Below, piece by piece: positions 23,401-29,400 of a DNA stretch of 46,158 bases. A program made the position numbers. Where the stretch lies: the IMG/VR virus record IMGVR_UViG_2859799533_000010. The stretch is one strand, 5' to 3'. Each line of letters opens with the position of its first letter. The first letter of the stretch is position 1. Origin of the DNA: a virus (taxonomy: Duplodnaviria > Heunggongvirae > Uroviricota > Caudoviricetes).

Positions 23401-26400
23401 TTTTCGTTGCTCCATGCTGGCGCGGGGAAGATAAGGTAATCCCCAGTCGGTATTGATAACCGTCTTGAGTGTTTCTTCACTTCCGGTTGTCTCGTATTCC
23501 TGTTCTGCAGTAAGCAGTTTGTAAACGAGTTGCGAGAGTGTCTGGTAAGCAGCTGCCGGACCCTCCATCCAGAATGACGCAATACGTGAGCGTCGGGGAT
23601 CACCATAACGACTGCCATCCGCATTGATGGATTCACCATCCCGCAACCAGACCCCACGTCCGTTCAGCTCACGTTTTTGTTCAGGCATAATCCGTCCTGA
23701 ACAGGAAGGGCACTGAATATAAGCCGCCTCACTTGCCAGCACGGGATCGGCAATATCACGGAAACCAGCAACCACATCGCCGCAGGGCTGAAAATACTCA
23801 CCACAGTGTGGACAGGGCCAGTACCAGCGACGGCGATCACCACGGTTATAGAGCGACAGGATCCCCGTGGTTGGTGGAGCCTCATGCGGTGAAGTCCGTC
23901 GCCATTTCACATCCTTCACATCCCTGCCGGGGGAACTCTCCACCAGCGTCATACCGCTGGACATAAATGTGGTGGTACGTTTTGAGGCAAGAGAGAAAGC
24001 ATCCCCCTCGCCATCAATATCTTCCGGAAAACGGTCATAATCCGTCAGCGCGACGCATTTATAATCTGATGAGGACATGATATTGACTGACGGCCAGCCG
24101 ATTTTCAGGTAGTTACCAGCAAGGAATGTTCTGTCATAAACGTTGTTGTCATTTTTGTTCGGACTCAGGCGACTGACCACTTCCGGGCTGACGCGAAACG
24201 TTCTGGCGAGTCGTTTTTTGGAGTGTTCGCGGGCTTTTTCCTCCGTCATCTGAATGATCAGCATATCAGCAGGATCGCAAATCACGTTGTAAATCACCCA
24301 GCCGTCAATCAGGCCGATAGTCTTGCCGGTTCGTGCCGGGCCAACAAATATCACTGCGTCGTATTCACGCGAGGCCAGGCAGTTCATCGGCTCAATAACA
24401 TACGGTGCCACCAGCGGATCCCACGGGACTGAGTTCCCTGCCCCCATGGGCACCCGCATATACTGAGCAACGGCATCAGCAACCCGCATTCGTCTCGGTG
24501 CGCGAAGGATATAACCTGAATCGGTTCGTGCTGCCTTTGCGGTTTCCTGATTCAGCATTACTCCTCCTGCTGTAATTCCTCCTCATCATCCGCACCTGCT
24601 TCAGTCACCCGCAGGGCTATCTGATCGCGCAGATCATCAATAATGGACTGAACACGGCTCACAGCGGCAGGCTGCAGACCGCAGTCACGTTCCAGAATAT
24701 CCGGTAATGTCTCCAGCACCTGCACGACCGCTTTTGCCCAGATGGCAAACTCCCGTCTGACATCACTGGCCGGAATGAGTTGTGCCGTTTCCTGTTCGAA
24801 CTTAAGACGCTCACGTTCAGACTGATACCAGGCTTTGCGCTCATGCGCGTCCATTTCGCCTTCTGCAACCGGCGGTGGCAATGCCAGAAATGCCGACACA
24901 ATATCAACCACCCGATAAAGCTTGAGGTTGCTTTCATGCCCCCCTGCAACGGGTAGATTTTGCAGCCTTGCCGCAGCAGTCTGGCGATGTACACCTGACA
25001 GTGCCGCCAGTTGACTGATATTCAGCGTCAGATTTTTTAACTCTCGATCCATACCCGCTCCAGAATGTTTTAAACATGCATCTTGCGAACAACTTTAGGC
25101 AAACGGTGTTAGTGATGAACAAAAAACAATCAAAATCGACACTGCAAAAATAAAAATACTGTAATATCAATCAATTACAGCAGTGGTGATGACGAATGAA
25201 ATTTCAAAAACTAGCCTTTTTCCGCGACGCTCCCGCCCCGTGGCAGGCCACCCCACCGGGAGGACCCGTCAGCCTGACAGCCATGACGAACGTCTGATAC
25301 AGCACCCTGCATGAATGGCATCGGGATAATCCAGAAAGGAATAGCATCGTACCCACAAGAATCTGTGTGAGTGTCCTGTTTCTTCCACCCCCGCACAGGA
25401 CTGGCGAGCATGAGGGACAAACCCGCGAATCATTAGCGCGGTAAAAACCCGGTGTGCATCGTTTTTGATTATTCCCGCACACTCTCGCAGAAGGAGTTCC
25501 CCGTCGGGCTACGGTCTCTGTTAATACGGGAATACGGCGACGATACAGCGCATGATGTGTCAGGCTTGAATACCTTTATCCGTTAAAAGGGATATCAGTT
25601 AAGTTATCCCGTGTAGGGTATAAGCCATTATCAAAGCCACTCTGTAGGGAGTGGCTTTTGTAATGGCAATAAAAAGCCCCGCGAATACGAGGCTAAATCC
25701 TGGTATTTGTAATGACTGGCTCTTATCTCAACGCAGCCCCTTACCGCGCGCAAGATGCTCAATATCAAGCATCAGCAATGAGATGTTTAATCTGGATTCA
25801 CTCCAGAAGTGATCACCACCCTGTCTACAGAGCCAGATGTGAAGGATGATAAGTAAAATTATCGCTATCATCGAAGGCATTGCGTCCTGATGTATTCCTG
25901 AAGCGTTCTCAGTGCTGTTTGGTCGCTGATGATTCCGTCCCGGATACCGAGAACGTTTCGTCCAGCAACTGGAGAGAGTTCGACGGTGGCATCATTGCCC
26001 ATGCCGGAGGCGCTGGAGGTTTCGGCTGAGGATGGCACAGGGCATTTTCCTTTGACGAACACCCGACCACCATTATCAAGCTTGCGCCGAAGAGCATCAT
26101 TTTCAGCTTTCGCATCAGCTAACTCCTTCGTGTATTTAGCATCGAGTGCATCAGCAGAACGCTGGCGCTGCTGCATGTCAGTAATGGTGGCGGTCGCCTG
26201 CTTCAGCTCACTGACTTTTTTATCTCGCTGTTCTTTGTAGGCGATGGCGTTATCACGGTAATGATTGACCGCCCACGACAGGCAGACGATGATGCAGATA
26301 ACCAGAGCGGAGATAATCGCGGTTACTCTGCTCATTGTTGCCCCCACAAACAGACTTCACGCTCAATCTCACGACGAGTCATCAGGCCTTTCCATTGCTT

Positions 26401-29400
26401 ACCGCCAGCGTATGTCCAGCGACGTAGCTGGTCACATGCGCCTTTGATATCGCCCTGGTTTATTTTGCGAAGAAGCGTCGATGTTCTGAAATTGCCAGCA
26501 CCCACGTTGTAGACGAACGAGTAAAGAGCGCCGCGCGTTGTTTCCGGTATATCGACTTTGATGTACGGGTTAATTTGTCTGGCGACCGTGGCAAGGTCTT
26601 TATTCAGGAGGGCTTTGCATTCTGCTTTGGTATACGTTTTACCGAGCATGATGTCTTTTCCTGTATGCCCGTGACATACAGTCCATACACCAACAATATC
26701 TTTGTATGGTATGTAGCTGACACCTTCCAGACCATCGTTACCACTTGGGCCAGTAATTAACACTGATGCTATAGCAATTGCTCCGCCACCAATAGCAGCA
26801 GCAACGGCTTTTCGTAATGATGGAGGCATTATTCACCTCTCGCAGCCTTGCGCTTATCTTCTTTAATCTTGAAATAAAGGTTTGTCAGGTACGTCAGCAG
26901 GCCAAATACCAGGCTACCCAGCACACCTATTGCTGCCCACTGTGAGGGCGTGACTTTATCGAGCAGCTGTAAAAACCAGTAACCGGCACTACCTGCTGAG
27001 GTGCCATAGGCGACACCCGTTGTTAACTTATCCATGGATTTCATAACCCCACCTCGCAGATGCGGGTGCTGTGTAATGGAAATAAAAAGGCCACCTGCGT
27101 GGCCACCAGATTATTTCCCCACCAGCTCGTTTATCTCTTTCACTGTCTGGTTAAACCGCTCTGACTCAAGCTCAACACCTAAGGCCCGACGCCCCAGCGC
27201 CATTGCTGCTTTTATTGTGGAACCGGATCCCATAAAAAAATCAGCAACCAGATCACCAGGTCGACTACTGGCATTGATTATTTGCCTGAGCATATCCGCC
27301 GGTTTCTCACACGGATGTTTACCCGGGTAGAACTGAACGGGTTTATGCATCCAGACATCGGTATAAGGCACGGAGACTGATACGGAGAAATAGCGCCGGA
27401 GAGATTTAAACTCATCCAGCAATTCAGAATATTTGCGATTCAGTGAATCATAAGATGCCACCAGCTGGTGGTGTGGTTGTTCCAGTTGTTGTTCCTGAAA
27501 CTTCTCTGCCGCTATACGGGAAAACAGTGCCTGTAACTTCCGATAGTCAGCCTCATTCGGCAACTGCCACTGACTGGCACCAAACCAGTGGGAAACCATA
27601 TTTTTCTTACCTGTGGCTTCGGCAATTTGTTTTGCCGTTATACCCAGTTCGGCACGAGCATCCCTGAAATACGATATCAGCGGTGCCATTATGTGCTGTT
27701 TGAGTGCCCTTTCTTTTGCCGCATAGCCGTCACTTTTGCCGCGATATGGCCCCTGGTAATGTTCAGCAAACAGAACGCGCTCTGTGGCAGGAAAATATGC
27801 GCGCAGACTTTCTTTATTACACCCATTCCAACGTCCGGACGGCTTCGCCCAGATGATATGGTTAAGCACGTTGAAACGTTCACGCATCATGATCTCAATA
27901 TCAGATGCCAGGCGATGCCCACAGAACAGGTAAAGGCTTCCGGCAGGTTTTAACACCCGCCAGAACTGGGCCAGACAGTGGTCCAGCCACTTAAGGTAAT
28001 CTTCATCCCCTTTCCACTGATTGTCCCAACCGTTGGGTTTCACCTTGAAGTAAGGCGGATCGGTAACTATCAGGTCAATGGAATCATCAGGCAGGGACTG
28101 AATAAAATGCAGGCAATCAGCGTTGATTAAATCAACACTGTTTGTTTTTACAGTATTTTTATATGAACGCATCCCGTTTGCAAGGCATCCATTGTTTTGA
28201 CATGACGGGTAGGTTGCAGCTTTATATCCGGCTTTATTGCAGCCGTAACGCTGCGAGCCCCTATGTAATTCGCCGACTCACCCCTTATTTTCACGGCGGA
28301 CTTCAAGCCCAAAATACTGTTCAGGTTTAGTGAGTCACGGTCTTACCTGTCTTTGTCATCACTCTGGCCGCCATAGCAACCTTTCAGCATTCACCCTTTT
28401 GTTAAGAGTTCATTGTTTAATGGTATCAGCGATTAATATGGTCTGATACTGACGTGGTTCCTGTCATACTTACGGTCATGGGCGGTTATCGCCCATACTG
28501 TTCGTGCCAGCTTGTTTGCCATGGCGACGATTGCCACACTGGCTGGACGACGTTTTTTCAGTTCGGTTATCCACGGGCCAGGCTCTTTAGCTACTAATGC
28601 CACCGCTCTTGCACCGTGGATAAATAATGTCCTGAGATAAGTGTCACCACGTTTGCTTATCCCCAGCAGACGTACTTTCCCTCCGGAGCCAGTTTGTTTT
28701 GGAACCAGACCAACATATGCGGCGAACTCTCGCCCCGATTTAAACGCTGATGCTTCCCCCATGGTGGCCACCGCTGCCGTCGCAATAAGTGGTCCAACGC
28801 CAGGAATATCCAGCAACCGCTTACAGGTTTCATTCTGCCTCGCCACGCTGGTAAGCTGTTTTTCAATATCCTCTATCAGTGAGTCCAGCTCATTCAGTCG
28901 GTTGTACTGGTTTTCCAGAACCATAATGAGATACGGTGGCAGTCTCTCTTTCATCCGTTCCAGTGCTTCGGGTAACTCCCGCTCCATCGCTGCCCGGCCT
29001 TTGTGGATGGTTTCACCAAACTCCAGTAACGTCCCGTGCAGGGCATTAATTTGTGCGGTCCGGAACTTCACCAGTTGCATGCGGGTACGGTGCAGAACCA
29101 GTACCGACTGCTGTTCTTCTGTTTTTACGGCGATTTCTTTACCCGGCTGCTGAACCGCCATCCAGATAGCCCGGGCATCCATCACATCATTCTTATTGCC
29201 CATGACGAATGCCTTAACGAAGCGGGCCTGCAACAACCGGACTTTATGACCAAGTTTTGTCAGTTCCCGTGCCCAGTGCTGAGAACCTCCACAGGCCTCC
29301 ATACCAATCAGGCATGGCTCACGGTTGCCGAAGAACGTCAGAAAATCCTGTCTACGCAACTGTTTATCAACCACTTCACCTGTGTGCTCATTGATGAAGT

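Follow-up and report, generated by a model that had tools for sequence, protein, structure and literature searches.

Two lambdoid lysis systems frame the locus described here. In phage lambda, S is a large-hole holin with three transmembrane domains (TMDs) and R is a cytoplasmic transglycosylase (PMC9636201). In phage 21, the endolysin R21 is of the signal-anchor-release (SAR) type and has been crystallised, with structures available for the active (PDB 3hde) and inactive (PDB 3hdf) forms; SAR endolysins carry basic residues at the N terminus, a weakly hydrophobic TMD and the motif E-x8-D-x5-T (PMC9239132). Here we analyzed the lysis genes at 25868-27044 of a 46,158-nucleotide stretch of Caudoviricetes DNA (IMG/VR record IMGVR_UViG_2859799533_000010), referred to below in its full length as the window. 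We conclude, with a probability of roughly 93%, that these genes are the late-operon lysis unit of an Ayreon-like lambdoid prophage and follow the pinholin, SAR-endolysin and two-component-spanin pathway of phage 21.

The cassette is of a known kind: it is ordinary, intact and well described, and nearly identical to its counterparts in coliphages 21, 434 and Ayreon. The genomes used for comparison, the complete one of phage 21 (OL657228.1) and that of phage 434 (OL657227.1), are annotated in detail. With the phage 21 unit (39866-41036), the window cassette shares its gene order, its overlaps, the MKSM dual start and an embedded +1-frame Rz1 starting with MRKLKMML, and its endolysin retains the complete SAR segment as well as the catalytic triad. 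It differs in its longer Rz1 (68 aa; 60 aa in phage 21), in the spanin allele from about Rz codon 84 onward, and in its flanks: two tRNA genes precede the phage 21 cassette and bor follows on the opposite strand, whereas in the window a DNA methylase gene and a terminator precede it and an open reading frame (ORF) of 50 codons, ORF50, comes after. The phage 434 cassette has the same S (71/71 residues), ribosome-binding region and architecture, and is annotated with an antiholin, a holin of class II, a SAR endolysin, an i-spanin and an o-spanin; however, the C-terminal module of its spanins is of the lambda/phage 21 allele (the window Rz is 62% and Rz1 47% identical), and it is flanked by an IS5-disrupted porin gene upstream and by bor downstream.

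Closer still is phage Ayreon (MF807953.1), whose relatives include vB_EcoS-569R4, Kati, PhiR70_1, mEp460 and cdtI. Ayreon has the same layout of methylase gene, terminator, S, R, Rz/Rz1, ORF50 and terminator, but lacks both the insertion sequence ISEc11 at the methylase start and the insertion of about 2 kb upstream of the antiterminator gene Q that are found in the window (Table 1). The K-12 prophage DLP12 carries a related set, essD-rrrD-rzpD/rzoD, in which RrrD equals the window R at 165/165 positions; this comparison was made through the RrrD protein and the gene names, and RefSeq applies the names essD and rrrD to the homologous genes in near-identical E. coli loci. Unlike the window, which holds an apparently full-length Ayreon-like prophage, DLP12 is a decayed cryptic remnant. 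Lambda itself (S105/S107-R-Rz-Rz1) has in common with the window the holin/endolysin/spanin logic, the gene order, the dual-start principle, a homologous embedded +1 Rz/Rz1 pair and equivalent cysteines, whereas its S and R are unrelated in sequence to those described here.

The ORF listing revealed four intact, tightly coupled ORFs on the minus strand, corresponding to S, R, Rz and Rz1. The stop codon of S and the start codon of R share one base, and the Rz start overlaps the R stop as ATGA. All four proteins fell in lysis families in a PHROGs search, and their Pfam matches, with E values from 1.3e-45 to 3.8e-21, are far beyond chance. Nucleotide identity with Escherichia phage Ayreon is 98.5% over the 1.5 kb around the cassette (25700-27200), a region matched in 311 phage records. 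What the sequence establishes for this locus is the anatomy of the genes, the families they belong to, their near-identity to experimentally characterised proteins and the diagnostic motifs, and no sequence feature contradicts the pinholin/SAR explanation.

An earlier note on this DNA had placed a lysis cassette at 25868-27044, which is exactly the interval bounded by the start codon of S and the stop codon of Rz; the strand, which that note left out, is minus. It had also described an S21-like holin of 71 aa starting with MKSM, an endolysin with an N-terminal SAR segment and an Rz1 lying wholly inside Rz in the +1 frame, and each of these is borne out by the family matches and alignments given below and by the coordinates in Table 1. 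As checks it had proposed an alignment to S21 and R21 and a prediction of TM segments, with an endolysin devoid of a TM/SAR segment as the result that would speak against it. The alignment returned 61/71 and 163/165 identical residues, respectively, and R does possess the N-terminal segment.

The S product matched PF04971, "Bacteriophage P21 holin S," with an E value of 2e-35 and 121 bits (cut-off 26) over 63 of the 64 profile positions. Its identity reaches 86% with S21 and 100% with S of the plaque-forming phage 434. The protein begins with MKSMDK and so carries the dual start Met1-Lys2-Ser3-Met4; in the comparison with phages 21 and 434, M1, K2, S3, M4, D5 and K6 are invariant, as are G40, G43, S44 and G48 of TMD2. 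TMD1 (residues 7-28) is free of charge, consists of Gly, Ala, Ser and Thr to 55% and has a mean hydropathy of 0.70, and TMD2 (residues 36-58), also free of charge, has a mean of 1.50. TMD1 is therefore weakly hydrophobic and SAR-like, and TMD2 is more hydrophobic with conserved small residues, as S21-type pinholins need. On these features S is assigned to the S21 family of class II holins with a dual start, and use of both starts is predicted. The identity to S21, read with the published work on holins (PMC9636201, PMC6116005), suggests that S would form heptameric pinholes of ∼2 nm that depolarise the membrane but bar a cytoplasmic endolysin.

The sequence immediately preceding S is the same as in phage 434, for which two ribosome-binding sites are annotated there. 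A minimum free energy fold pairs the Shine-Dalgarno sequence of S with an upstream CACCCGC. Shuffled sequence folds with the same energy (z = 0.00), and we therefore make no claim for a regulatory RNA hairpin at the dual start, which such a pairing could at most hint at.

The endolysin R matched the phage lysozyme family PF00959 with an E value of 1.3e-45. It is identical to the crystallised R21 except for T98M and V159I, neither of which falls in the SAR segment, so that residues 1-97 are the same in the two proteins, and it is identical throughout to E. coli RrrD (PDB 4zpu). The SAR segment spans about residues 6-27 and comprises R6 and K7 followed by a charge-free stretch (residues 8-27), of which 65% is Gly, Ala, Ser or Thr. 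The best 19-residue Kyte-Doolittle mean is 2.11 for R, against 0.04 for lambda R, which has no hydrophobic segment. The catalytic triad motif E35-x8-D44-x5-T50 is present and conserved. Judged by its sequence, R fits the published definition of a SAR endolysin (PMC9239132). Its identity to R21 suggests that R would be exported by the Sec system without cleavage, tethered in an inactive state, and released and refolded when the proton motive force collapses (PMC6116005).

The spanin genes were identified in the same way. Rz matched PF03245 (E 6.9e-29) and phrog_13 (E 6.5e-75); its longest ORF, 26347..25868, begins with GTG, and the ATG at 26335 corresponds to the annotated Rz start of phages 21 and 434. 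The protein has R3, an N-terminal TMD at residues 4-24 (mean hydropathy 2.41) and two predicted periplasmic cysteines, Cys98 and Cys153. Rz1 matched PF06085, the Rz1 lipoprotein precursor family (E 3.8e-21), and phrog_3198 (E 9.1e-27), and an AAGGAG lies 7 nt upstream of its ATG. The lipobox consensus of such proteins is [LVI][ASTVI][GAS]C (PMC6139136); Rz1 has VVGC ending in Cys19, with Ser and not Asp at +2, as expected of an o-spanin, and a Pro-rich mature part containing Cys27. Rz1 occupies 0.47-0.91 of the length of Rz, which by position corresponds to the usual geometry of embedded spanins. This geometry and the lambda cysteines, Rz C99 and C152 and Rz1 C29, are described in PMC6139136; Rz C98 and C153 and Rz1 C27 of the window align with them and likewise with the cysteines of phage 21. 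By homology, the two proteins would be joined by intermolecular disulfides, form an Rz-Rz1 complex and disrupt the outer membrane.

The spanin pair is not uniform along its length. Rz residues 1-83 are nearly identical to those of phages 21, 434 and lambda, and divergence sets in at about codon 84 (about codon 10 of Rz1), leaving an overall identity of 61% for Rz and 47% for Rz1 to phage 21 and, equally, 61% and 47% to lambda. The joint lies at about 26084-26091 of the window, and many phages share only its upstream side: that side is common to phages of the 434, cdtI and ev207 types, and the downstream side is common only to phages of the Ayreon, 569R4, Kati, PhiR70_1, SEN22 and mEp460 types. 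The central Rz/Rz1 segment matches neither phage 21 nor Sf6, whereas the final ∼12 codons of Rz, like the sequence beyond them, are of the Sf6/HK620 type. These codons, ORF50 and the following sequence are nearly identical to Sf6 genes 63 and 65, but in Sf6/HK620/CUS-3-type (P22-like) phages the module is paired with a holin of the lambda type (PF05106) and an endolysin of the lambda-R type. The pattern marks the spanins as a mosaic with the crossover within the region coding for the Rz1 signal peptide, ∼10 codons in, such that the C-terminal part of Rz and mature Rz1 are swapped as one unit. The jointly swapped parts would be interacting partners, to judge from the work on lambda summarised in PMC6139136. 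The label "phage-21-type" given in the earlier note holds for S and R and for ∼83 codons at the start of Rz; in its C-terminal half, Rz is another allele, and so is the mature part of Rz1. More generally, the locus shows lysis cassettes built from exchangeable modules. In the records themselves, the Ayreon annotation omits the o-spanin Rz1, and the HF4s record wrongly places the label "o-spanin" on the ORF after Rz.

Taken from the near-identity of these proteins to studied ones and from the published descriptions (PMC9239132, PMC9636201, PMC6116005 and bioRxiv 10.1101/2021.04.20.440580), the following course of lysis is proposed, in which topology dynamics, hole size, dependence on the proton motive force and spanin function are all predicted by homology. 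Late transcription antiterminated by Q would pass the terminator upstream of S and yield one mRNA for S, R, Rz and Rz1 with their overlapping stop and start codons. S68, initiated at Met4, would be the pinholin, and S71, initiated at Met1, would be the antiholin, whose extra Lys2 delays the exit of TMD1 from the inner membrane; the two forms would accumulate in the inner membrane. Export of R would meanwhile run through Sec, and the SAR segment, uncleaved and rich in Gly and Ala, would keep the enzyme anchored in the energised inner membrane in an inactive state. When the programmed moment arrives, TMD1 would quit the bilayer and TMD2 would oligomerise into the heptameric pinholes, collapsing the proton motive force. 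The SAR segment of R would then be released, and the enzyme would refold, complete its E35/D44/T50 active site and degrade the peptidoglycan. Finally, Rz, an inner-membrane protein, and Rz1, an outer-membrane lipoprotein, joined via their C-terminal parts and stabilised by disulfides, would disrupt the outer membrane, probably through fusion of the two membranes.

Table 1. Positions of the lysis genes and of nearby features in the window
Feature	Coordinates	Strand	Remarks
S71, predicted antiholin form of pinholin gene S	27044..26829	-	71 aa from Met1; PF04971; 100% identical to phage 434 S
S68, predicted active pinholin form	27035..26829	-	68 aa from Met4; dual products annotated in phages 21 and 434
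Shine-Dalgarno GAGGTG for the S dual start	27050..27055	-	From the sequence
R, SAR endolysin (GH24 lysozyme)	26829..26332	-	165 aa; PF00959; start overlaps the S stop by 1 nt
Rz, i-spanin	26335..25868	-	155 aa from ATG; PF03245; phrog_13
Rz1, o-spanin lipoprotein	26115..25909	-	68 aa; PF06085; inside Rz, +1 frame
ORF50, possible fifth gene or non-coding 3' sequence	25880..25728	-	50 codons; phrog_11822; adjunct, unproven as part of the cassette
Intrinsic-terminator-like hairpin GGCCACGCAGGTGGCC followed by a T-run	27104..27089	-	Between the DNA methylase gene and S; terminator scan; annotated terminator in Ayreon
Transcript end of the lysis unit: terminator hairpin with T-run; long near-perfect inverted repeat	25694..25675; 25672..25618	-	Terminator scan; annotated terminator in Ayreon
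Q antiterminator gene	31684..30890		Upstream of the cassette; PF03589, E 1.4e-53
ISEc11 (IS110 family), 1,439 bp	28161..29599	-	Right after the methylase ATG; in the late operon between Q and S
Insertion of ∼1.96 kb	34195..36154		Where two nin-region genes meet, upstream of Q; without counterpart in Ayreon

The order S-R-Rz/Rz1, together with spanins homologous to lambda Rz and Rz1, would also be expected of a lambda-type S/R cassette, in which a large-hole class I holin releases a cytoplasmic transglycosylase. The chance of this is negligible: S has two TMDs and not three and belongs to PF04971 and not to PF05106, R is a PF00959 protein with an N-terminal membrane segment that lambda R lacks, and BLASTP gave no alignment between S and lambda S and nothing beyond noise (E above 3) between R and lambda R. 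The absence of any detectable similarity of S or R to the lambda counterparts in BLASTP already refutes a lambda-type S/R pair, and the statement in the earlier note that lysis follows the pinholin/SAR and not the lambda S/R pathway agrees with the data. Hole size and signal-peptide processing are unreadable from sequence, and the N terminus of R, with its basic residues and hydrophobic stretch, superficially resembles a signal peptide, which would leave room for a canonical large-hole class II holin combined with an ordinary, cleaved endolysin that is secreted and otherwise restrained. We consider this very improbable, since the first 97 residues of R are those of R21, whose N-terminal segment reportedly escapes signal peptidase and acts as a SAR anchor (PMC6116005), and the hydrophobic stretch has the Gly/Ala/Ser/Thr content of SAR domains. 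On the holin side, the prototype pinholin S21, to which S is so similar, reportedly makes holes too small for lambda R (PMC6116005).

A further possibility is that the cassette is intact yet silent or cryptic in this prophage, like essD-rrrD-rzpD of DLP12, the insertion sequences having uncoupled Q-dependent transcription or crippled induction and left a fossil or domesticated module. ISEc11 does sit inside the late operon between Q and S, at a site that is empty in Ayreon and in 5,426 complete E. coli genomes; the second insertion, of ∼1.96 kb and with an IS3-family signature, interrupts the region upstream of Q; and R is 100% identical to RrrD, a protein of a defective prophage. We nevertheless regard silence as unlikely, given that all four lysis ORFs are intact, that S is identical to that of the viable phage 434 and that the remaining prophage is collinear with the viable Ayreon. 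Lambdoid Q-modified RNA polymerase is terminator-resistant, and because the transposase gene of ISEc11 is oriented like the late operon, read-through of the element is plausible. Silence would in any case bear on expression only and would leave gene identity and protein action unchanged.

Some points weigh against the assignment to the phage 21 pathway. The 10 substitutions between S and S21 include W27L, Q30K and L47F, and W27L falls within the aromatic patch YWFLQW that reportedly stabilises the S21 pore (bioRxiv 10.1101/2021.04.20.440580); for this reason pore stability or timing could differ from S21, yet phage 434 uses the identical allele. The spanin C-terminal module is another allele than that of the studied lambda and phage 21 proteins. 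Expression in this prophage is uncertain, with ISEc11 between Q and S and the ∼2-kb insertion upstream of Q. Lysis-gene expression might be lowered by either insertion, and this is the only serious uncertainty; it touches activity in this lysogen and not the identity of the cassette, and an effect of ISEc11 on lysis-gene expression would matter just for the biology of this lysogen. The consequence of assigning the cassette to the phage 21 pathway is limited mostly to annotation, in that the labels antiholin/pinholin S71/S68, SAR endolysin, i-spanin and o-spanin can be assigned with confidence.

As a whole, the window runs collinear with phage Ayreon (44.7 kb), though in the opposite orientation, with identities of 95-99%, and contains in order the integrase (44944..46158), immunity, replication, Q, methylase, lysis, terminase and tail genes. 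The ISEc11 copy is 99.9% identical to other E. coli copies and lies 1.1 kb upstream of S in the orientation of the late operon. No ISEc11 was present at the methylase-start site in phage Ayreon or in any of the 5,426 complete E. coli genomes searched. An ATG in the end of the element restores an in-frame ORF of 353 aa (MRSY followed by KNTVK...). Transposases of the IS110 family are RNA-guided. The ∼1.96-kb segment carries an IS3-family ALIL frameshift pseudoknot (34730-34846, plus strand) and an ORF of 296 aa (34772..35662, plus strand).

The terminator-like hairpin between the methylase gene and S sits upstream of S, and transcription into S must therefore read through it. At the other end of the unit, directly 3' of the T-run terminator, the inverted repeat at 25618-25672 (GCCATTATCAAAGCCACTC...GAGTGGCTTTTGTAATGGC) has the look of a terminator acting in both directions, placed between the lysis genes and the cos/terminase region. 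Within 24900-27300 no Rfam family matched at the gathering threshold. A match to STnc560 at 25605..25784 (19 bits, threshold 55) was dismissed as chance, the genuine locus being the Salmonella ydeI/ydeE intergenic region and not a prophage, and matches to Rfam miRNA precursors were spurious products of the long terminator hairpin. Two antisense ORFs within the cassette (25929..26240, 103 aa, and 26261..26512, 83 aa, both on the plus strand) matched no family above the cut-off in the family search and were considered spurious as genes. A comparison of 25078-25236 with the end of the Ayreon record (1-300) showed that, between the terminase gene and the lysis unit, ∼150 bp of Ayreon have no counterpart in the window. 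The extra ∼150 bp of Ayreon resembles short pieces of the Q gene and of the small-terminase gene (window 31128-31215 and 24648-24719) and falls within a CDS annotated as "putative late gene regulator"; it may be an artefact of the record end.

ORF50 overlaps the stop codon of Rz, and the ATG of its Met4 forms ATGA with the Rz TGA (47 codons from Met4). It has a hydrophobic N terminus, precedes the operon terminators and matches phrog_11822, a family of unknown function, with an E value of 3.9e-38. Wherever found, it stands directly after Rz: in Sf6 (gene 65), HK620, CUS-3, epsilon34 and many E. coli prophages, with any type of holin. In a protein search its close relatives were confined to Escherichia, apart from one partial Enterobacter match, and all either had no name or carried the wrong label "lysis protein, partial"; a tblastn search of phage records located copies in phages of Escherichia, Salmonella and Shigella. 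Six DNA haplotypes of ORF50 differ by 5 synonymous and 20 non-synonymous changes (pN/pS 1.05), and one lineage carries Arg and Pro within the putative TM helix. The sequence thus appears free of constraint at the protein level; its coding status is doubtful, and ORF50 is not counted as a proven gene. It is quite unlikely, in our estimate, to be a genuine fifth lysis gene; as such it would encode a small membrane protein with a single pass, its translation coupled to that of the spanin and its role the modulation of lysis timing or of envelope events. We know of no such gene described for lambdoid or P22-like phages.

Rfam also gave matches elsewhere in the window. In the early/immunity region, a match to C4 antisense RNA (RF01695, 82 bits) adjoins one to the IsrK Hfq-binding RNA (RF01394, 60 bits) at 37981-38169 on the minus strand, both at the gathering level. 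A strong match to IS009 (RF02111, 223 bits, full length) lies at 2117-2315 on the minus strand, at the tail-fibre end of the prophage.

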